Shown here: in pieces, positions 26,139-59,709 of the stretch | Layout of the letters: each line of letters opens with the position of its first letter | How positions within the stretch are numbered: the first letter of the stretch is position 1 | DNA from: Candidatus Moraniibacteriota bacterium | GTDB lineage: Bacteria; Patescibacteriota; Minisyncoccia; Moranbacterales; UBA2206 | NCBI GenBank assembly: GCA_963775955.1 | Contig: CAVZKT010000002.1 | Span: forward strand, 7,994-71,993 | Reading direction: 5' to 3' | Length of the DNA: 64,000 nucleotides | The notes under the pieces: model-generated | What the model was told of the DNA's origin: nothing | The model's database searches: none | The model's input: only the letters and a program-made list of their open reading frames with translations | Made by a program: the position numbers and the translations under genes

Positions 26139-28010
26139 ATGAAAAATTTAGCCAAAAATATTATCCTGATGTTATTTCTTTTCCTGCTTATTTCCGGGCT
26201 GTTTGTGCTATATTCAGGACCAGCCAAAAAGCCGGCCGAAGTGGCTTTAAGCGCGCTGGTGGCGCAGATTAATGAGGGCAAAGTAAAGAAAATTAGCGTG
26301 GATAATAATGATTTGAACATCACGCTCGCGGACGAAACAGCGGAAAAATCAACCAAAGAACAGGAAACCGGGCTCACGGAATCTCTTAAAAACTACGGAG
26401 TGGACCAGGAAAAACTAAACGCAGTGAATATTGAAATTAAGGGGCCGTCGTCAACTTCGATGTGGTTGGGCACTATTTTGCCCTTTCTTCTGCCCTTTAT
26501 ATTAATTGCGGCCTTTATTTGGTTTATGCTGCGTCAGGCGCAAAGAGGAAACTCCCAGGCTTTGTCTTTTGGAATGTCACGCGCGCGCATGACTGATCCG
26601 AAGGATAAAAAAAATCGGGTGACTTTTGCCGATGTGGCCGGAGCTAAAGAGGCCAAGGAAGAACTCCGGGAAATCGTCGAGTTTTTGAAAAGCCCGGGCA
26701 AGTTTTTAAAACTGGGAGCTAAAATTCCCAAAGGCGTCCTTTTGCTGGGGCCTCCAGGAACGGGAAAAACTTTGATTGCCAAAGCTGTGGCCGGAGAGGC
26801 TAATGTGCCGTTTTTCAATATCAGCGGATCGGAATTTGTGGAAATGTTTGTGGGTGTCGGCGCTTCACGCGTGCGCGATCTTTTCAAGCAAGCCAAGAAA
26901 AACGCGCCGGCCATTGTTTTCATTGATGAAATTGACGCTGTCGGGCGCCATCGCGGAGCGGGGCTAGGCGGCGGACATGATGAACGGGAACAGACTTTGA
27001 ATCAGATCCTGGTAGAAATGGACGGTTTTGACACCACAACCAATGTAATTGTTGTGGCGGCTACCAATCGCCCTGATGTTTTGGATCCGGCGTTGCTGCG
27101 GCCTGGACGCTTTGACCGGCGCGTGGTTATGGATTTACCCGACATTGAAGAAAGGCTGGCAATTCTCCAAATTCACTCTAAAAACAAGCCTTTTGAAGAA
27201 AAGGTTAATTTACGCGTGATTGCCGAAAGAACCTCCGGATTTTCCGGCGCTGATCTTTCCAATTTAGTTAATGAGGCAGCGATTCTGGCTGCCCGGCGGG
27301 GAAAAAAGCAGGTTGAAATGGCGGAGCTTACTGAAGCAATTGAAAAAGTTATTCTGGGGCCGGAAAGAAAAAGCCGGATAATTGACGAGCAGGAAAAGAA
27401 AATTATCGCTTATCATGAAGCCGGACATGCTCTTTTGGGAGCCAGTCTTCCGCACGCCGATTCGGTGCAAAAAGTTTCTATAATTTCCCGCGGCCAGGCT
27501 GGAGGCTACACGCTGTCTGCTCCGGAAAAAGACCGCCGGTTGCATTCCAAAAATTATTTTCTGTCAGAGCTGGCCGTCCTTTTGGGAGGATATGTAAGCG
27601 AAGAAATAATTTTTGGCGAGGTTACGACCGGCGCGTCCAATGATTTAGAGCGGGCAACCGCGATGGCGCGCAATTTGGTGACCAGGTTCGGAATGAGCGA
27701 ATTGGGCCCGCGAACCTTCGGACACAAAGAAGAACTGGTTTTTTTGGGCCGGGAAATTTCCGAGGAAAAAAATTATTCCGAAAAAACCGCCGAGGATATT
27801 GATAAGCAGGTGGCTAAATTTATCGGTGAAGCGCACAATACGGCTGAAAAAATTATTCAGGAAAAGAAAGAGATCCTGGAAAAAATTGTCAGCGTGCTGA
27901 TCGAGAAAGAAGTCATTGAACAGGATGAGTTTAATGAAATAGTTGGACTTAAAAAAAGAGAACATAAAATTGAAGAGAAAAAAGCGGATACAAAAACAAA
28001 AATCGCTTAA
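26139..28010 (+). CDS. ftsH: ATP-dependent zinc metalloprotease FtsH
   Basis: [23 protein letters not shown], 623 aa. Confidence 0.95.
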
Positions 28011-28019
28011 TTTAAAAAA

Positions 28020-28997
28020 ATGTCTAAAATTAACTACTTAGATATCATAAAAAAGGCCGCCGCGGTTACCTGGAAAAATAAAAATCTCTGGTGGTTTGGT
28101 TTTTTTGCGTCGCTTACCAGCGCCGGAAGTTATTTTAGCTATTCTTCTGGAAACGAAAAAGAATTTGCTGGCAGTGCAATAACCAAAGAAAGGGTTATGG
28201 GCTTTGTATCTGATCATATTGCGCTTGTGATTGGCGCGGGAGTTGTTTTCGCTGCCATTTTTATTGTATTTCTTGCGCTGGGAATCATCGGGCGGGGCGC
28301 GTTGATTAAGGCGATCGGTAAAACGCTTAAAAATGAACCGGTTGATTTCAAATCCGGAATGCGCGAGGGGAAAAAATATTTTTGGAAAATTTTGAGCATT
28401 GGATTTTTGAGCGCGATGTTTATTTTTCTAGCCGTCGTAATTTTGGCTATCCCGATTGTTTTTCTATTTTTAAACAAGGCTTATGTTTCAGGCGTTTTAC
28501 TGGCGCTTCTAGCCATCGCCATCCTGATCATGTTTATAATTCTTAGCGTTTTCGTTCGAATTTACGGTTATATTTATGTGACACTGGGGGAGTTGAAAAT
28601 CTGGACGTCCATTGAAAACGCTTATACGCTTCTTCGTAAAAACTTGGGCGTGAGCATTGTCATGGGACTTATTTTTGTACTCCTTGGCATAATTCTGGGC
28701 TTGTCTCTCATTATGCTTCTGGCTCCCATTGTGGCTGTGCTTTTTGTTTTAGGCTCATTTTTTTATTTAATCCTGAAGGGCGTCGGAATTGCCATAGCCA
28801 TCGGGCTGGGCGCTATTACTATTCTTGCGATTACACTTTTTGTCCGGTCTGTTTATGAAACATTCGCGCAGACTATTTGGATTTTATTCTTTTACGAAAT
28901 CGCCAAGCCGAAAGTTGAGGAGACCGTAACTGAAGAAGCCGAGGAAATAAAAGCTGCTCCCGCTCCTGATCCGGTGAAAACAAGTGAGATTTTGTAA
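28020..28997 (+). CDS. hypothetical polytopic membrane protein
   Basis: 325 aa, about 6 TM helices, acidic tail. Confidence 0.55.
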   Translation: MSKINYLDIIKKAAAVTWKNKNLWWFGFFASLTSAGSYFSYSSGNEKEFAGSAITKERVMGFVSDHIALVIGAGVVFAAIFIVFLALGIIGRGALIKAIGKTLKNEPVDFKSGMREGKKYFWKILSIGFLSAMFIFLAVVILAIPIVFLFLNKAYVSGVLLALLAIAILIMFIILSVFVRIYGYIYVTLGELKIWTSIENAYTLLRKNLGVSIVMGLIFVLLGIILGLSLIMLLAPIVAVLFVLGSFFYLILKGVGIAIAIGLGAITILAITLFVRSVYETFAQTIWILFFYEIAKPKVEETVTEEAEEIKAAPAPDPVKTSEIL

Positions 28998-29067
28998 TAA
29001 AACGGGCGTGCTCAGTTTCCGCCAAAGGCGGACCCGCCTATGGCGGGGGTTAGAAAGTATAATGCAC

Positions 29068-29140
29068 GGGCAATTAGCTCAGTGGTTAGAGTGCTTCGTT
29101 GACATCGAAGAAGTCACTGGTTCGATTCCAGTATTGCCCA
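29068..29140 (+). tRNA. tRNA-Val(GAC)
   Basis: GGGCAAT-TA-GCTC...CTTCG-TTGACAT-CGAAG...ACTGG-TTCGATT-CCAGT-ATTGCCC-A. Confidence 0.9.
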
Positions 29141-29356
29141 CAAATTTTTTTCAAAAAAGAAAATTTTTCTGTTTAGCCTGTCCGCCTTCAGAGGAGAGTT
29201 CCAAAAATTCGGAATGACGGAAGCGGAGCAATCTCCTTTTTATATTTCTCTCTCTTTATACTCTTGGTCGCCAGCGTCCCACCCAACCCAACGCTGGCGA
29301 CAGCATGGAATTCCCTAAAATAAAAGCGACAAGAAATTTTCTTGCCGCTTTAAATA

Positions 29357-30262
29357 TTAATCTTCCTTAACCTCCTCCTCTATTAGTCTTTTAAGACATT
29401 CCTCGTTTGTAAATAACTCGTCAGCAGCTTCAAGCAGTTTATGTCTGTAGACATCCTCGAAGAAATCGGAAATTGGTAAGCGTAAGACTGTTGCTTGATT
29501 GAAGAAACTTTCACGGTCAAGTCCAGAATGTTTCATCATGCTGCCAGAAAAATGACGATCCATAATCACCCAAGTTTTTGGGGTATTAATTGTTTTAAGG
29601 GCAATCAGATTGACTTCTTTATTTCTAAGAGCCGAAACAATTTCAACCTTGTTTTCGAATTTTTTCGCAAACCATTGTGCAATAACAGGAGCCACAACAT
29701 CCTTTTCGTATTTTCTTTTAATGTCACTGTCATAATCACCATTAATCCCATGTTCCCTGTAATGGAAAGGGGAATGATCCCCGGTGCATTCAGAAACTAC
29801 ATAAATTTTTTCTGGAGCTACGCCATGATTCTTGATTTTTTCAATAAGGTTAGAAACAATAATCTCAGTTCCAACCATGTCATCATTTATTATGTTTGTA
29901 TATCCTTTTTTAAACATAGCTCCGCAGGTGATCCTAACTGCCTTATCGCATAAAGAATCGAGTGTGTCTGTGAAAAATATTGGATTTTCCTTTTTGCCTT
30001 TAAAACTACCACTTGTATACTGGGTTGGATTTGCTTTTTCGTCCTCGTCGCAAATTATGCGGACGCATGTTTTGTCTGAAATAACCAGGTTATTTCTAAA
30101 CTTTGCCAAGTGCTTGTTCATTCCAATTCTAATTTCATCTACATTGGCTGTAGAAAAAAAAGTAATCATTTCAACCTCAAGGTCTTTTAACCACCCCATA
30201 ATTTTAGGTACGAGTTTTTTATAAAGATCGTTTTCTCTATAAACCACAAATATTTTTTTCAT
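29357..30262 (-). CDS. hypothetical protein (orphan, AT-rich islet)
   Basis: 301-aa ORF, no motif recognised. Confidence 0.5.
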   Translation of the reverse strand: MKKIFVVYRENDLYKKLVPKIMGWLKDLEVEMITFFSTANVDEIRIGMNKHLAKFRNNLVISDKTCVRIICDEDEKANPTQYTSGSFKGKKENPIFFTDTLDSLCDKAVRITCGAMFKKGYTNIINDDMVGTEIIVSNLIEKIKNHGVAPEKIYVVSECTGDHSPFHYREHGINGDYDSDIKRKYEKDVVAPVIAQWFAKKFENKVEIVSALRNKEVNLIALKTINTPKTWVIMDRHFSGSMMKHSGLDRESFFNQATVLRLPISDFFEDVYRHKLLEAADELFTNEECLKRLIEEEVKED

Positions 30263-30428
30263 AAAACCCTCCTGCTCTTTATAGTCCCGCGACTTTAGTT
30301 TTTTTAAAGAACATTTTTATTCTGTGTCGAGTTTTAATCCTCAACATGTCTTTATACATCAAAAAAGTAATCTCGTCCAAAAAAGAGGTGATATTGACAA
30401 GAAAGTAAACTAATGGTTTACTTATGGT

Positions 30429-31289
30429 ATGGATATCTTTGGGGAAAACAATATAAGAGGCCTGATTTTGGATAGTTTATCCAAGGAACCTAAAAAGGGG
30501 GCTGTTTTGGTCGAAGAAATCAAAAATATTCGCAAAAGCACGACCAAGCAAGGGGTTTATAAGGCCTTGAGAGTTTTAATTAAAGAAAAATTAGTAGTGA
30601 AATACCGCAGAAATTTGATGCTGAATCAGATTTGGTTAAACAAAGTAAACAAGTTTTTAAAACAAACTGACGAAAACTATCTAGGTAAAAAGGGCGATCA
30701 AGACATAGATACTCTTGAATGGATGACAGAAGGAAGCAGAATGTCCTATGTTTTTAATAGTTATGATTCGCTTGATCGATTTCACTCGCACATTTTTTCG
30801 TTGATCATTAAAAAAACCGACCCGCAAGCACCGCTGTATGTCTATAATCCTCATGAATGGTTTGTGTTGAAAACAAATTTGAAAGAAAATGAAGATTTTC
30901 TTTTTGATTGGTTAAAAGAAAGAGGCAGACAGGTATATTTTACTATCGGACATGGCACTTTTTTAGACAAAAATTTCAGAAAAAATTACTCATCCGAAGA
31001 ATTTGAAATTGCTATAGATGAAAAAACCAATTATCCTGAAAACTGCTACATTAACATAATTGGAAATTATATTATAGAGATGAAGAATAATAAGGAATTT
31101 GCAGGAAAATTACATGCAATTTACGAAAATTCGACAGACGAAAACGAGGCTAGCGAGAAAATAACGGCGTTGCTGAAAACCAAACACAAAATAAAGATGA
31201 TTCTGTCTTGCAACAGTCAGAAGGCGAAAAAAGTGAAAGCGAAGCTTGGAAAAAATTTCTTTATTCCTAAAGAATTAAAAAATAAATAG
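30429..31289 (+). CDS. hypothetical protein with N-terminal winged-helix-like segment
   Basis: GAVLVEEIKNIRKSTTKQGVYKALRVLIKEKLVVKY resembles a wHTH. Divergent from 29357-30262. Confidence 0.45.
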   Translation: MDIFGENNIRGLILDSLSKEPKKGAVLVEEIKNIRKSTTKQGVYKALRVLIKEKLVVKYRRNLMLNQIWLNKVNKFLKQTDENYLGKKGDQDIDTLEWMTEGSRMSYVFNSYDSLDRFHSHIFSLIIKKTDPQAPLYVYNPHEWFVLKTNLKENEDFLFDWLKERGRQVYFTIGHGTFLDKNFRKNYSSEEFEIAIDEKTNYPENCYINIIGNYIIEMKNNKEFAGKLHAIYENSTDENEASEKITALLKTKHKIKMILSCNSQKAKKVKAKLGKNFFIPKELKNK

Positions 31290-31508
31290 ACAGCTTTAGC
31301 TTCGAGGTGTGAAAGCATATAATCGATGCGGAAAACTGAAAAAACTTTAACTATTGTCTTATTTAATAATTTCTATCTGCGAACTTTTGCTAAACCATCA
31401 AAAGGGAGTCATATTGGTTTAAGTGTGTGCGAATGGGGCGGAGACTAAGTAGAATTTTGAAAAAAAGTTTGAGCTTGGTTGTAAATTCGCACCAAATAAT
31501 ATAAAATC

Positions 31509-31530
31509 GTCCTTATAGTTCAATGAATAG
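31509..31530 (+). pseudogene. 5' fragment resembling tRNA-Arg(CCT) (acceptor + D-arm only)
   Basis: GTCCTTATAGTTCAATGAATAG matches GTCCCCATAGTTCAATGGATAG of the intact gene at 32208 (19/22), then diverges into GGCAAGC... Confidence 0.55.
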
Positions 31531-31555
31531 GGCAAGCCCGTCCTTGGACTTTGTC

Positions 31556-31571
31556 GCTGTTCATGCTATAA
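31556..31571 (+). promoter_or_regulatory. extended -10 promoter element TGCTATAAT
   Basis: CATGCTATAATTTATTT sits directly upstream of the ATG at 31579, giving a near-leaderless arrangement. Confidence 0.4.
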
Positions 31572-31578
31572 TTTATTT

Positions 31579-32151
31579 ATGAGAGGAAAACCTGTTTCAA
31601 AAAAAGAAATACAGAAAATAGAGCAACTGAGAAAAACGGGGCATAGTCTGCCTGAAATTTGCAGAGTTTTGAAGCGAAGAAAATCCACGGTTCATGGATA
31701 TGCAAAGGATGTGGTTGTATTGCCGGAATATATAAATATTTTAAGACAAAAACAAGGTGGTAGTGCAGCAAGAGCTGAAAAATTTTGGAATAAAGCAAGA
31801 TTTAACGCAAAAAAACTATTAAGAAAAATCGGAAAAAGGGAAAAACTTTTTATTTTAGCTGCTATTTATTGGGGAGAAGGAGCAAAAAAAGAATTTAATC
31901 TTATTAACAGCGATCCGGCACTTATTCAAGTCTCCCTTTCCTGCTTAAGAGAGATTGGAGTTAAGGAAAAAGATCTTCGTATCACACTTAGGGTTTATGA
32001 GGGCATAAATATTGAAGATGCTAAAAAATATTGGTCGAAAATATGCAAAGTAAACTCAAGGAATATCAAAAATGTTAATGTTTTGGAAGGTAATAAAATC
32101 GGAAAGCTTCCATATGGAATGTGCAGAATACGCATAACCAAAGGCGGATAA
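31579..32151 (+). CDS. HTH + LAGLIDADG-like putative homing endonuclease
   Basis: N-terminal resolvase-type HTH (IEQLRKTGHSLPEICRVLKRRKSTVHGY). LFILAAIYWGEGAKKEFNLINSD resembles a LAGLIDADG motif. Flanked by a tRNA fragment and an intact tRNA. Confidence 0.35.
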   Translation: MRGKPVSKKEIQKIEQLRKTGHSLPEICRVLKRRKSTVHGYAKDVVVLPEYINILRQKQGGSAARAEKFWNKARFNAKKLLRKIGKREKLFILAAIYWGEGAKKEFNLINSDPALIQVSLSCLREIGVKEKDLRITLRVYEGINIEDAKKYWSKICKVNSRNIKNVNVLEGNKIGKLPYGMCRIRITKGG

Positions 32152-32207
32152 TCATTCAAACTGATTATGAGTATGATTGAACATATTAAATTTCAAATTA
32201 TAAAAAT

Positions 32208-32279
32208 GTCCCCATAGTTCAATGGATAGAACGAGAGACTCCTAAGCTCTAGATCCACGTCCGATTCGTGGTGGGGACA
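32208..32279 (+). tRNA. tRNA-Arg(CCT)
   Basis: GTCCCCA-TA-GTTC...loop CTCCTAA...CCACG-TCCGATT-CGTGG-TGGGGAC-A. Unusual TCCGA T-loop and an A:G at pair 31:39. Confidence 0.75.
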
Positions 32280-32318
32280 CACTTTGACTCGCTTCACTTG
32301 TTCAGTGCAAGCAAAAAA

Positions 32319-33852
32319 ATGATCAAAAAAATTCCAACTCAAGTCATTGAAGTTTTACAAAAACTGGAAGAATCAGGCTTCGAGGCTTTTATCGTGGGCG
32401 GATGCGTGCGGGATTTGCTCACATTGTGGTGAGCCTGTGAACCAAAAGACTGGGATGTAGCGACTAATGCCAAGCCGGAAGAAGTGCAAAAAATATTCCC
32501 GGACAGTTTTTATGAAAATGAATTTGGAACGGTCGGAGTGAAAGTAAAGCCGTTTATTAAAAATGGAAATCCGAATCGTGAGCATGACGTGATAGAAGTA
32601 ACCACCTATCGCATTGAATCGAAATATTCCGACAAGCGCCGGCCGGATAAAGTTGAATTTGCAAAAACATTAGAGGAAGATTTATCAAGAAGGGATTTTA
32701 CCATCAACGCGATCGCATTAAAACTCGTAACTCATAACGCACAACTCGACACCCGAAGAGGAAAAAATAGCTACGAGCTACGAGCTATGGGTTACGAGAT
32801 CATTGATCCATATGATGGTCAGAAAGATATTAAGAAAAAAATAATCCGCGCAGTGGGTGACCCGCATGAAAGATTTGATGAAGATGCTTGCGGATGATGC
32901 GAGCGGTGCGGTTTCACGCGGAGCTGGGATATAAAATTGAAAAAAATACTTTTGAAGCCATTAAAAAAATATAGCCGGGGATTTAAAACACATTGCTCTT
33001 GAAAGAATAAAAGACGAACTGGCCAAAATTATATTATCCGACAATCCATGCTGAAGGCATTGATATGCTGCATAAAACTAAATCTTCTGGAATATATTAT
33101 TCCGGAATTGGAAAAGGGCGTGGGCGTGAAACAAAACCGCCATCATATCTATACGATATACAAACACAGCATTTTATCTTTAAAACATTGTCCTTCGCAA
33201 AAAATTGGAAGTGCGCTTGGCTGCGCTTCTGCATGACATTGCTAAGCCGCAAACCAAAAGAGGCGAAGGCGAATATGCGACTTTCTATAACCACGATCAT
33301 GTGGGTGCGCGGGTGGCGGCCAAAATTCTTGAGCGTCTGCGTTTTTCACGTGAAACAATTGAAAAGGTGAAACTTCTCGTGGATAATCATATGTTTTATT
33401 ACAATCCGGAAGAAGTGGGAGCCAGTTCCGTCAGAAAATTAATTCAAAAAGTCGGCTTGGAAAATATGAAAGATTTGATTGATGTGCGCATTGCCGATCG
33501 TTTGGGTTCGGGCGTGCCGAAGGCCAAGCCGTATAAATTGCGCCACTTGGAATATATGATTGAAAAAGTTTCCCACGATGCCATTTCCGTAAAGATGCTA
33601 AAAATCAACGGCAATGATCTGATGAAAGAATTAAATTTAAAACCCGGTCCCAAAATCGGCGCGATTCTGGATGTTTTGCTCTCGGAAGTTATTGAAGATG
33701 CTTCCAAAAATAATCGCGAGCATCTTTTAACGCGCGCTAAAGAATTGGATAAGGAGGATTTGAAAAAACTCCGCCAGATGGCGAAGGTAAAGATTGAAGA
33801 GAAAAAAGAAGAGGAAGACAAGGAAATTAAGAGAAAACATTGGGTGAAGTAG
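32319..33852 (+). CDS. cca: CCA-adding enzyme / poly(A) polymerase family with HD domain (5-6 frame changes)
   Basis: Pieces: MIKKIPTQVIEVLQKLEESGFEAFIVGGCVRDLL / PKDWDVATNAKPEEVQKIF...RDFTINAIAL...IIDPYDGQKDIKKKIIRAVGDPHERFDEDA / LRMMRAVRF.. / ...LAALLHDIAKP...YNHDHVGA. Confidence 0.85.
32724..32798 (+). repeat. 75-nt heptad-word hairpin inserted in frame in cca
   Basis: CTCGTAACTCATAACGCACAACTCGAC...AGCTACGAGCTACGAGCTATGGGTTACGAG encodes VTHNAQLDTRRGKNSYELRAMGY between the conserved RDFTINA and IIDP motifs. Confidence 0.8.
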
Positions 33853-33943
33853 GACCATTAGCTCAGTTGATTACCCGCCTCGGCTCGTGGAAGACACTTT
33901 GCGAGGCAGGGAGCACTGCATTTTCACCCCGCACCAAATTTAT

Positions 33944-34129
33944 GGATGCGTAGCTCAACCGGTTAGAGCGCTGCATTTTCATCCCGTTAGATATATGGAC
34001 GATTAGCTCAGTTGGTTAGAGCGTTGCATTCACATTGCAAAAGTCACTGGTTCGAGTCCAGTATCGTCCACAGAAAATCTAACGGGACAAGCATTGCAGG
34101 GGTCACAAGTTCAAGTCTTGTGCCATCCA
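33944..34129 (+). other. middle interrupted tRNA-like gene (same UUC anticodon arm) containing tRNA-Val(CAC)
   Basis: 5' part 33944-33981, 3' part 34094-34129. Bounding repeat CCCGTTAGAT (33983-33992) / ATCTAACGGG (34077-34086). Acceptor pairs 5/7. Confidence 0.5.
33997..34070 (+). tRNA. tRNA-Val(CAC)
   Basis: GGACGAT-TA-GCTC-AGTTGGTTA-GAGC-G-TTGCA-TTCACAT-TGCAA-AAGTC-ACTGG-TTCGAGT-CCAGT-ATCGTCC-A. Confidence 0.9.
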
Positions 34130-34230
34130 CATAAAATTGGTGCGGGGCAGGTTGCAGGGGTCAGTGGTCCGAGTCCGCTAGTGACCACAAATACTAAAAA
34201 CCAAATACAAAAAACTAAAAACTAACCAAA

Positions 34231-34846
34231 ATGGCTTCGCAAGTTTCCCACATAATTTACGCCCGCAAATATTTCGAAAAAAATCCGGCTTTGCCTAATT
34301 TTGAAGATGAATTTATGCTGGGCTGTGTTTTTCCGGACATCCGCCGGATTGACGAAAGTATAAAAAGAAAAGACACGCATCGCTGTTTTTCGCCGCTGGA
34401 TTTGAATTTTTCAGGACTTTCTCCGTTCCAGGCCGGCTGGAAATTTCATTTGTATTGCGATATGAAGCGGGAGGAGATTTTAAATAAATATAAATTTTAT
34501 GAAATTCCCGGAACTGCTGATTTTTGGCACCAGTCAGCCAAACAACTGGAAGATGAAATTATTTATGAAGAGTATAATAATTGGGAAAAAGTCGTGCATT
34601 ATTTCAATAATGTTCCAAAGATAGAAATAGGCATAGGATGTTACACATGAAACTTTCCAGCTGTGGTATGCGATAATCGCCAAATATATTGAGAAAAAAC
34701 CGGACAACAAATCAGCGCATATTTTTTTATCAAAACAACTGTCATGGGCGGAAAAAGCCGACGATATAGTCAAATCAGTTGACAATTTGCGCAAAAATGA
34801 GAGAGTTATAGGGATACTCAGGAAGGTGAAGGATGAAATATTATAG
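34231..34846 (+). CDS. hypothetical protein (one frameshift near 34645)
   Basis: ORF 34231-34650 continues as HETFQLWYAIIAKYIEKKPDNKSAHIFLSKQLSWAEKADDIVKSVDNLRKNERVIGILRKVKDEIL in another frame. Confidence 0.5.
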
Positions 34847-34927
34847 GCCTTGGGGTGTGGTGGAACCCGCGCAGCAGAGCGAGGCGTGGTGCGGGGCAAG
34901 CTGGCAGATTTACCTCGTGCAAATGGC

Positions 34928-35010
34928 GGGCATGTGGCGAAATTGGTATACACGCATGCTTCAGGTGCATGTGGGAGCAATCCTTGAGAGTTCGAGTCTC
35001 TCCATGCCCA
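34928..35010 (+). tRNA. tRNA-Leu(CAG)
   Basis: GGGCATG-TG-GCG...CATGC-TTCAGGT-GCATG, long variable arm, GAGAG-TTCGAGT-CTCTC-CATGCCC-A. Confidence 0.85.
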
Positions 35011-35146
35011 CTTTATTTTTCGGAGCGTGGTATAGTGGTATTACCTGCAGCACCAGAGCGAGGCGCTCGGTGCGAGGCAGGCGCCCGTTAAATACCGGAG
35101 CATAGTATACCGGTAGTACGCGCCCCCTGCCCCGTTAAATATTTTT

Positions 35147-35217
35147 CGGGATATAGTATAGTGGTAGTACGCGCGATTCGGGTTCGTGAAGTCCCAGTTC
35201 GATTCCGGGTATCCCGA
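35147..35217 (+). tRNA. tRNA-Pro(CGG)
   Basis: CGGGATA-TA-GTAT-AGTGGTA-GTAC-G-CGCGA-TTCGGGT-TCGTG-AAGT-CCCAG-TTCGATT-CCGGG-TATCCCG-A (one A:C in the T-stem). Confidence 0.8.
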
Positions 35218-35449
35218 CATCGAAAAATTTAACGGGGTGAAGGTGGGTGTAGACCGGGTTCGATTCCCGGCATCCCGACCGAAAATTTAACAGGGTGAAG
35301 GTTCGTGAAAACCGGGCTCGCCCCGCGCCATTTCTCGGGATAATTGTGGTTTTATTAGGCATTAAGGCGAAGCCGCTTCGCTTTAGTTCTGATGAATATC
35401 ACAGATTATGTTTGGAAATGGTGCGGGGTGAAATTCCCGGCATCCCGAC

Positions 35450-37445: not shown

Positions 37446-37450
37446 CACAG

Positions 37451-37500
37451 GCGCGCTTAGCTCAGTTGGCTAGAGTCCGCCACGGCGGATTTACACCGAG
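37451..37500 (+). pseudogene. partial copy of tRNA-Val(TAC) (acceptor, D-arm, modified anticodon arm)
   Basis: GCGCGCTTAGCTCAGTTGGCTAGAG is identical to 37745-37769, followed by TCCGCCACGGCGGA-TTTACAC-CGAG. Confidence 0.7.
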
Positions 37501-37511
37501 AGGGTAAAATT

Positions 37512-37754
37512 ATGTTTTTTGTATACATTATCGAAAATAATGACGGAAAGCTGTATATTGGTCAAACCTATAATTTAGAAAAAAGAATTCTAGATCATAA
37601 CGAATTAGGAATAGGATATACTTCTAAATTTAGACCATGGAAATTAATATATTCAGAAAGTTTTTATTCCAGGAAAGATGCTATGAAAAGAGAAAAATAT
37701 TTAAAAACCGGAGCTGGCAGGGACTGGATTAAAAATAATATCAGGCGCGCTTAG
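37512..37754 (+). CDS. GIY-YIG nuclease-domain protein (80 aa)
   Basis: MFFVYIIENNDGKLYIGQTYNLEKRILDHN...KREKYLK. The stop codon TAG lies inside the 5' end of the downstream tRNA-Val(TAC). Confidence 0.8.
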   Translation: MFFVYIIENNDGKLYIGQTYNLEKRILDHNELGIGYTSKFRPWKLIYSESFYSRKDAMKREKYLKTGAGRDWIKNNIRRA

Positions 37755-37821
37755 CTCAGTTGGCTAGAGCGCCTCGTTTACACCGAGGATGTCGGGGGTT
37801 CAAGTCCCTCAGCGCGCACCA
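37745..37821 (+). tRNA. tRNA-Val(TAC), the only tRNA here with an encoded CCA
   Basis: GCGCGCT-TA-GCTC-AGTTGGCTA-GAGC-G-CCTCG-TTTACAC-CGAGG-ATGTC-GGGGG-TTCAAGT-CCCTC-AGCGCGC-A-CCA. Confidence 0.9.
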
Positions 37822-37933: not shown

Positions 37934-38181
37934 CCTGGATAGCTCAGTTCCGCCAAGGGCGGACAGGGTTCGAGCACACGACCCCGCACTAAAATTTTGC
38001 CGAGTTAGCTCAGTGGTAGAGCACACGACTGAAAATCGTGGTGTCCCCAGTTCGATCCTGGGACTCGGCACATAAATGGCAAAATTTAGTACGGGGCAAG
38101 CTGAAAATTTTACCCCGCACCAATCCGCCGCGGATTTGGTGTCGGGGCCTTGCGTGCCCAGTTCGACTCTGGGATCTGGCA
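37934..38181 (+). other. interrupted tRNA-Phe-like gene enclosing intact tRNA-Phe(GAA)
   Basis: CCTGGATAGCTCAGTT[CCGCCAAGGGCGG]...GAGCACACGAC | CCCGCACTAAAATTTT | tRNA-Phe | AAAATTTAGTACGGGG CAAG CTGAAAA [TTTTACCCCGCACCAATCCGCCGCGGATTTGGTGTCGGGG] CCTTGCGTG-CCCAG-TTCGACT-CTGGG-ATCTGGC-A. Confidence 0.5.
37999..38070 (+). tRNA. tRNA-Phe(GAA)
   Basis: GCCGAGT-TA-GCTC-AGTGGTA-GAGC-A-CACGA-CTGAAAA-TCGTG-GTGTC-CCCAG-TTCGATC-CTGGG-ACTCGGC-A. Confidence 0.9.
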
Positions 38182-38231
38182 CAAAATATTGCTTTGCATG
38201 AAGCGGGTCTGCCCGCCAAGGCGAAGCGCAG

Positions 38232-57597: not shown

Positions 57598-59709
<2,112 letters not shown>

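Follow-up and report, generated by a model that had tools for sequence, protein, structure and literature searches.

The closest described mechanism to the locus reported here is that of the mORFs of fungal mitochondria, in which an endonuclease open reading frame (ORF) enters a gene and brings along a foreign version of the portion that it displaces, as described in PMC3630166 for atp6 of Allomyces and for atp6, atp9, cox2, and nad3 of Glomus. We analyzed a 64,000-nucleotide (nt) stretch of a Candidatus Moraniibacteriota genome (contig CAVZKT010000002.1; the whole stretch is hereafter the window, and positions refer to it), where a gene encoding a helix-turn-helix (HTH) and a LAGLIDADG-like domain lies between a 5' fragment of a tRNA-Arg(CCT) gene and an intact copy of that gene. 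Judged from sequence comparisons, the locus is probably the decaying scar of a homing-endonuclease-like cassette that acted on tRNA-Arg(CCU) in a "disrupt and replace" manner.

As in this putative cassette, the native part is left next to an mORF as an unused remnant, the host gene stays functional, and the nuclease is of the LAGLIDADG or GIY-YIG type (PMC3630166). Several features of mORF-like cassettes are found here—i.e. a split host gene, a working replacement, native remnants, and both filled and empty sites among relatives. Unlike the mORFs, the cassette has a bacterial host and a tRNA gene as its target, and the displaced remnant is the 5' part; it also carries its own promoter and tRNA, and its protein combines an N-terminal HTH with a noncanonical domain.

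Genomic islands and phages integrate into tRNA genes, often in the anticodon loop, and restore the gene with their own copy. Such elements rely on tyrosine integrases, span kilobases, and substitute the 3' part, in contrast to the cassette, which has no integrase, displaces the 5' side, and forms a unit of only ~0.7–0.8 kb.

A free-standing nuclease gene among tRNA genes is also found in phage T4, where the GIY-YIG homing endonuclease SegB lies in a tRNA gene cluster and promotes the inheritance of its own region by intronless homing (PMC2330249). SegB belongs to another nuclease family and to a phage host, and the portion of the article consulted mentions no tRNA gene that is split or replaced. 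Selfish nuclease genes in RNA genes occur in the same bacterial radiation as well, namely LAGLIDADG homing endonucleases in rRNA insertions of candidate phyla radiation (CPR) bacteria (PMC11270868). These differ from the cassette in residing in rRNA introns or insertions, and the main text of that article contains 0 occurrences of "tRNA". In the full-text literature, as far as it was accessible, HTH/LAGLIDADG-like genes of these bacteria that abut tRNA genes were not described; the supplements of PMC11270868 could list such genes.

A tRNA-Arg(CCT) gene probably interrupted in the anticodon loop

The locus comprises the following features, all on the plus strand.

31479–31507: promoter-like site TTGTAA-17-TAAAAT directly 5' of the relic (consensus match only)
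31509–31544: relic of the resident tRNA-Arg(CCT), nt 1–36, with acceptor strand, D arm, 5' anticodon stem, and anticodon CCT
31544–31572: ORF promoter TGGACT-16-TATAAT (10 of 12 consensus positions, TG present)
31579–32151: gene for the HTH and LAGLIDADG-like protein, 190 codons, with a premature TAA (32149–32151) as its end
32152–32217: in-frame continuation past the TAA, 21 codons, aligning with the conserved C-terminal helix of homologs
32208–32280: intact tRNA-Arg(CCT), the replacement gene (ARAGORN; Rfam, 58 bits)

The initial annotation, made from the sequence of the window without database searches, had described a single ORF between a tRNA fragment and an intact tRNA-Arg(CCT) at 32208, and both the ORF and the tRNA were recovered by our analysis. 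It had also read 31509–31530 as a copy of the start of that tRNA. The first 22 nt of the gene (32208–32229) are identical to this segment at 19 of 22 positions; only two matches with ≤3 mismatches exist within the window, and no shuffle out of 100 gave any, so that none is expected by chance.

Where the fragment ends differs from what had been proposed, namely a stop at nt 22 followed by a switch to GGCAAGC, a motif thought to be shared with other tRNA nests in the window. When loci from other genomes are aligned side by side, the relic copies reach tRNA nt 36, with which the anticodon CCT ends. By this alignment the breakpoint is in the anticodon loop (nt 36/37) and not in the D loop, and the apparent switch at nt 22 is local divergence; nt 23–32 of the window relic, GGCAAGC included, are diverged tRNA sequence. 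In the window, the motif of the initial annotation, GGGCAAGC, was counted 5 times where 2.9 would be expected, with 15 of 100 shuffles reaching 5 and no exact match near 58462. This count is within the shuffle range, and thus the link to other tRNA nests is no more than chance.

Over nt 1–36, the relic is identical to the window's own tRNA at 26 of 36 positions and to the uninterrupted tRNA of G401, a genome of the same genus, at 28 of 36. Specifically, nt 26–32 agree at 5 of 7 positions with the G401 tRNA vs 2 of 7 with the window's own tRNA, and the anticodon arm of the G401 tRNA is of the type seen in the relics. The intact tRNA in the window does not encode its CCA end. At 19 sites that discriminate two reference tRNAs, it has the type of locus L008 at 15 and the G401 type at 4 (3 of these in the T arm), which weakly hints at a mosaic origin of this gene.

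The promoter element that had been assigned to the ORF was recovered as a promoter-like site. Its extended −10 element (TGcTATAAT, 31564–31572) lies 6 nt before the ATG, and the mRNA would therefore be leaderless or nearly so. The −35-like box, 16–17 nt upstream, starts at T36, within the anticodon of the relic. The same layout is present at other loci, where a TTGACA-like −35 begins after relic nt 36 and is followed by a 16–18-nt spacer and a −10 about 6 nt before the ATG. Promoter-like sites in the region number 4, vs 4.3 expected in shuffles. The site directly 5' of the relic is possibly the old promoter of the resident tRNA.

Association of the gene family with tRNA genes

A scan of one genome per species yielded 150 loci encoding relatives of the ORF, and the counts below rest on 80 of them. 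A same-strand tRNA-Arg(CCT) directly follows the ORF in 79 of the 80 loci, the sole exception being a locus (L037) whose contig ends 68 nt after the match. The stop codon of the ORF falls inside the tRNA in 50 of these 79 loci, 0–22 nt before it in 26, and 45–92 nt before it in 3. Because the stop lies inside the tRNA, annotated proteins end in translated tRNA—i.e. ORFs reading into tRNA genes give spurious C-terminal tails in annotation.

Other genomes show the same order of a 5' fragment, the ORF, and an intact tRNA as was noted in the window. A relic of the first 22 nt of the adjacent tRNA is found in 12 of 78 other evaluable loci (14–21 matches, shuffle P ≤ 0.025), at 49–98 nt upstream of the called start codon and mostly at 69–74 nt, which is the offset seen in the window. 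Of 75 loci, 30 have a junction signature, TCC[CT][TA]G, at 37–47 nt before the start codon, compared with 1.0 loci on average and never more than 4 in shuffles; in many further loci, degenerate remnants of the D loop and the anticodon arm occupy the corresponding position. Thus, the inner relic is kept even where the acceptor part is gone, which suggests that it may now be under selection as a promoter or operator. Old 3' parts of the tRNA directly follow the intact tRNA in loci L078 (from nt 37) and L053. A similar candidate in L045 was rejected, as it proved to be a real tRNA-Arg(TCT) gene.

The relics and the linked tRNAs differ in the anticodon arm. Among 13 clear relics, G32 is present in 13 and C31 in 12, while 12 of the 13 adjoining tRNAs have A31 with C or T at position 32.

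Some tRNA-Arg(CCT) genes have other arrangements. About 40 nt upstream of the intact gene, L113 (genome G437) has a solo 21-nt 5' tRNA fragment and a 19-nt GC-rich spacer with no ORF. In L009, a more complex nest combines a spacer of the same GC-rich type with a hairpin-interrupted partial tRNA after the intact one. Small noncoding cassettes seem to act at the same tRNA-Arg(CCT) gene.

Paralogs of the ORF adjoin other tRNA genes. In four multicopy genomes, a same-strand tRNA starts at the end of the ORF in 17 of 20 paralog loci, and the identities include Gly-TCC, Gly-GCC, Ile-TAT (2), Ile-GAT, Arg-GCG, Arg-CCT, Gln-TTG (3), Met-CAT (3), Trp, Val-GAC, Tyr, and Ser. Of the remaining 3 loci, one is cut by a contig end and two have no tRNA. 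The genome of the window itself carries a second family copy that adjoins tRNA-Tyr(GTA) with a 3-nt gap. This copy (L002, 1291–2004 of G000:C2) is intact, encodes 208 amino acids (aa), and is located ~167 kb from the studied locus; its upstream box resembles the D-arm of the Arg relic and not that of tRNA-Tyr. At another locus (L103, 711–1518 of G106:C2), an intact tRNA-Ser(GCT) precedes the paralog, and the tRNA downstream of it is assigned by ARAGORN to Ser, with ACT as an unusual anticodon.

An uninterrupted site and the distribution of the family

In G401, the corresponding site is uninterrupted and consists of tRNA-Val(GAC), 19 nt, and tRNA-Arg(CCT). The flanks of this site align with positions 27636–29144 and 32210–33818 of the window at 76% identity. 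Collinearity breaks at 29144 and 32210, so the window carries 3,065 extra bases relative to G401, made up of the relic, the promoter, the ORF, and 2.4 kb with two further ORFs. The latter part includes the following features.

29145–31508, no strand assigned: DNA extra relative to G401, between tRNA-Val(GAC) and the relic (defined by collinearity with G401)
29357–30262, minus strand: ORF of no assigned family, 301 aa, within the extra DNA
30429–31289, plus strand: ORF of no assigned family, 286 aa, within the extra DNA

Searches of both neighboring ORFs with Pfam, PADLOC, and PHROGs returned only one weak PHROG of unknown function.

Among 41 related genomes, tRNA-Arg(CCT) was found in 17, and the ORF is present in 2 of these 17 (the window genome and G423). 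A search with tblastn for degraded ORFs in the long gaps 5' of the relatives' tRNA-Arg(CCT) returned only translated tRNA, and the small ORFs that occur there are unrelated. Relatives without the nuclease-like gene have other genes 5' of this tRNA, including a ~180-aa ORF that is hydrolase-like by eye in L108, L121, and L123, and a ~100-aa Cys-rich ORF, zinc-ribbon-like by eye, in L109 and L110. The spot upstream of tRNA-Arg(CCT) appears to be a hotspot for variable genes.

Phylum-wide, 401 genomes were sampled, and 95 of them carry the family; among high-quality genomes the count is 86 of 338, and among genera it is 77 of 320. A genome can have as many as 7 copies, and some copies contain internal stops. 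This distribution fits the cycle of invasion, decay, and loss of homing-endonuclease genes.

Some loci carry unexpected bin labels. For example, identical ORFs are found under differing labels in L057 and L059 (Wildermuthbacteria vs "Gammaproteobacteria") and in L023 and L025 ("Nanoarchaeota" vs Patescibacteria), and other loci are labeled Woesearchaeota, Bathyarchaeia, or Bdellovibrionales. The oddly labeled bins are probably mis-binned or mislabeled CPR contigs.

Protein family and domain identity

A word-indexed protein search with the window protein produced 288 candidates, of which 90 are relatives at E ≤ 0.001, most of them 207–212 aa long and all from uncultured Moranbacteria/Paceibacterota-type sources. 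An exhaustive profile search extended the family to 3,834 representative clusters at E ≤ 0.001 (1,809 at E ≤ 1e-10). By these sequence matches, the ORF is a member of a large family of the Patescibacteria (CPR), with an N-terminal HTH and a C-terminal domain. At least 8 relatives of 396–576 aa, among the matches listed, match the domain profile in two stretches. Genes of this family are presently annotated as "hypothetical" or as "MerR/XRE regulator".

The resolvase-like HTH that had been proposed is borne out by Pfam HTH_38, which matches the window protein at E 1.6e-5, below the Pfam curated cutoff, and also 36 of 53 family members; HTH_7 matches 18 of 53. Used as a single query, the window protein gave only HTH-type or chance-level matches in a PDB search, NCBIfam, and PHROGs, and an ESM Atlas search gave no usable match.

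The C-terminal domain centers on a helix with the motif YWGEG, whose Y, E, and G are invariant across sets of 26, 53, and 69 sequences. I-DmoI is a LAGLIDADG endonuclease encoded in an archaeal rRNA intron, and the Glu of its motif is catalytic. When a profile of 53 family members was searched against all PDB sequences, I-DmoI (1b24, 2vs7, 5o6g, and others) was the best match, at E 3.1e-5, and the sole nuclease among the matches; a profile of the C-terminal domain (69 sequences) again retrieved only I-DmoI, at E 0.0026. In the profile alignment, the YWGEG helix together with the strand and helix that come after it corresponds to the second motif region of I-DmoI (about residues 100–150), and the invariant Glu of the family aligns with the Glu of the I-DmoI motif GLYVAEG. 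Unlike I-DmoI, the family has a single domain with an HTH, a predicted topology with an extra helix and strand, and no Foldseek or Pfam match.

Proposed mechanism and its alternatives

We propose that a cassette composed of a promoter, a gene for an HTH and LAGLIDADG-like putative homing endonuclease, and a tRNA-Arg(CCU) gene would have entered the anticodon loop of the resident tRNA-Arg(CCU) after nt 36. The 5' part of the resident gene (nt 1–36) would have been displaced upstream, where it survives as the relic at 31509–31544, and the cassette-borne tRNA, into which the ORF originally ran for 10 nt, would have taken over the role of the resident one. The protein may dimerize and cut uninvaded tRNA-Arg(CCU) genes near nt 36/37, and the cleaved gene would then receive a copy of the cassette through repair. 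The tRNA linked to the ORF may evade cutting through its anticodon arm (A31 with C or T at 32, vs C31–G32 in the relics), the conserved inner relic may act as a promoter or operator, and the tRNA could be produced by read-through and RNase P processing or from a weak promoter in the 3' end of the ORF. The nuclease activity, target, and mobility of the family are inferred from sequence.

Several observations weigh against this reading, including some that bear on the domain itself. The initial annotation had noted a segment reminiscent of LAGLIDADG. The alignment of LAAIYWGEG with the second I-DmoI motif agrees with that claim, but neither a Pfam model nor a canonical fold does. Searches with LAGLIDADG_1, _2, and _3, which had been suggested as a check, and with similar models gave no match in the window protein at E ≤ 10; they matched 0 of 53 members at E ≤ 1, and of 10 long relatives none matched at E ≤ 0.01. 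For a full-length homolog (predicted local distance difference test, pLDDT, 91) and for the domain alone (pLDDT 92, predicted template-modeling score, pTM, 0.84), confident AlphaFold models did not recover the canonical fold, which is alpha-beta-beta-alpha-beta-beta-alpha with a four-stranded DNA-binding sheet; the predicted domain has the topology alpha-beta-alpha-beta-alpha-beta-beta-alpha, with four strands and four helices. Foldseek against the PDB found nothing at E ≤ 1e-3, the best match being IspF-like (E 1.9e-3, template-modeling score ~0.35), and no LAGLIDADG chain was among the matches listed. Since the motif aligns but Pfam and Foldseek do not confirm it, we call the domain LAGLIDADG-like and do not file it as a member of that family; on the predicted model, it is possibly a derived LAGLIDADG form with an insertion.

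The remaining points against it concern inheritance and the relics. In a quick maximum-likelihood tree of 75 ORFs, the grouping reflects host class wherever a label can be used, many of the bin labels being unreliable, and Moranbacteria, Microgenomates, and Azambacteria each cluster together. Because the tree follows host class, long-range horizontal transfer is not shown, and the distribution of the family equally fits an ancient vertical inheritance in which the gene was lost many times. That the inner relic is deeply conserved argues for selection and not merely for recent insertion. Cognate 5' relics upstream of the paralogs are not detectable at most of the 17 tRNA-linked loci; L103 alone has an upstream cognate (a whole tRNA-Ser), and in L094 a tRNA-like gene of odd form is present. 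Of the 80 ORF-linked tRNAs, 18 share the G32 loop type with the relics, so that immunity through the anticodon arm is possible but not general. Finally, the window has no old 3' tRNA part after the intact tRNA.

Some of these points would suit a vertically inherited, domesticated DNA-binding protein (a LAGLIDADG-derived, WhiA-like regulator) that controls or accompanies tRNA expression, with the upstream box being an operator and not a scar. This fits the broad agreement of the ORF tree with host taxonomy, an inner relic that is found at a constant spacing from the start codon in 30 of 75 loci, also where the acceptor part is missing, the ORF and tRNA forming one tight unit in 76 of 79 loci, and a predicted fold that is not that of a canonical LAGLIDADG nuclease. 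We nonetheless regard such a regulator as unlikely, given the patchy occurrence of the gene (2 of 17 relatives with tRNA-Arg(CCT) and 95 of 401 genomes phylum-wide), the uninterrupted site in a same-genus genome, the stops in some copies, the remains of a second tRNA copy (full-length 5' relics as well as old 3' parts), and the invariance of the acidic residue of the motif. A miniature integrative element, entering the anticodon loop by site-specific recombination as genomic islands do and using the HTH protein as its recombinase or transposase, is quite improbable: the insert is flanked by direct repeats of part of a tRNA, and the HTH resembles those of resolvases and of IS30/Tc1-type transposases (HTH_7 in 18 of 53 and HTH_38 in 36 of 53), but only HTH models match the protein, with no serine, tyrosine, or DDE catalytic domain in Pfam, NCBIfam, or PHROGs, and its C-terminal domain resembles the LAGLIDADG motif instead. 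The displaced part is also the 5' part here and the 3' part in known elements.

That the locus is a degenerate ORF-bearing intron of tRNA-Arg(CCU), of the group I or archaeal type, with the fragment as its 5' exon, is hardly credible. The break directly follows the anticodon, which is the position of group I introns in bacterial tRNAs, and I-DmoI, the best structural relative by sequence, is intron-encoded. Against this, only ~35 nt separate the relic from the ORF and none the ORF from the tRNA, and the downstream tRNA is complete by itself. In agreement with the earlier remark that no intron-like core is evident, an Rfam scan of 29000–33000 at E ≤ 1 returned two tRNA genes and two weak, sub-threshold, unrelated families, and no intron.

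The disrupt-and-replace cassette can be extended to the whole family, a view that we hold only tentatively and think somewhat doubtful. The family would then be a phylum-wide set of LAGLIDADG-derived nucleases with paralogs for at least a dozen tRNA identities, each cutting one kind of tRNA gene and overwriting it with its own copy, such that selfish elements would continually replace and exchange the tRNA genes of ultra-small bacteria like these; the inner relic would serve as a promoter or operator for target-sensing self-regulation. The cassette reading as such would account for the commonness of tRNA-gene fragments and of "tRNA inside tRNA" arrangements in CPR genomes, and it shows how a selfish nuclease can invade an essential and extremely conserved RNA gene without cost to its host. 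It also points to a large untapped natural enzyme family, each member of which may recognize a different tRNA gene sequence.

Probable decay of the window copy

Relative to its homologs in the alignment, the window protein stops ~20 residues early. The reading frame past the TAA ends at a TAG inside the tRNA, with a 10-nt overlap. The premature TAA removes the last helix, and the window copy is therefore probably decaying, unless this stop is an assembly error. Among sequencing runs compared with the stretch, none contained more than 0.12 of the sampled words, and no RNA run was among those listed. The residues that are invariant in the family (Y97, E100, G101, N110, D112, W152, and G180) are all present in the window protein.

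A second broken gene lies directly 3' of the tRNA. This gene (32319–33852), encoding the CCA-adding enzyme, has an in-frame TGA at 32430–32432 and a change of frame near 32900–32965, whereas its G401 counterpart is one unbroken open frame of ~517 codons. The broken cca gene is either an assembly error or a notable pseudogene, the latter because the tRNA-Arg of the window does not encode its CCA. These breaks also lower the trust that can be placed in the TAA of the ORF at 31579–32151. The in-frame TGA led us to consider a genetic code in which TGA is read as Gly (table 25), and we rejected it because no TGA occurs in long nearby genes, ftsH among them, and because the cca gene also has a frameshift.

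Other tRNA-associated elements in the window

The initial annotation had compared the locus with a GIY-YIG gene next to tRNA-Val(TAC), and this neighbor does share the layout with a different nuclease family. The GIY-YIG gene (37512–37754, 80 aa, Pfam E 2.4e-18) ends inside the intact tRNA-Val(TAC); flanking it are two identical 28-nt copies of that tRNA's 5' end (37448–37475 and 37742–37769).

Dense tRNA-gene fragments also surround the tRNA-Val(CAC), Leu, Pro, and Phe genes at 33850–35350 and 38040–38190. These clusters consist of tandem 5' and 3' pieces (repeat families D2–D10) together with inverted copies of a word that resembles a tRNA 3' end, for example in I17 (33927–33944 and 34130–34147).

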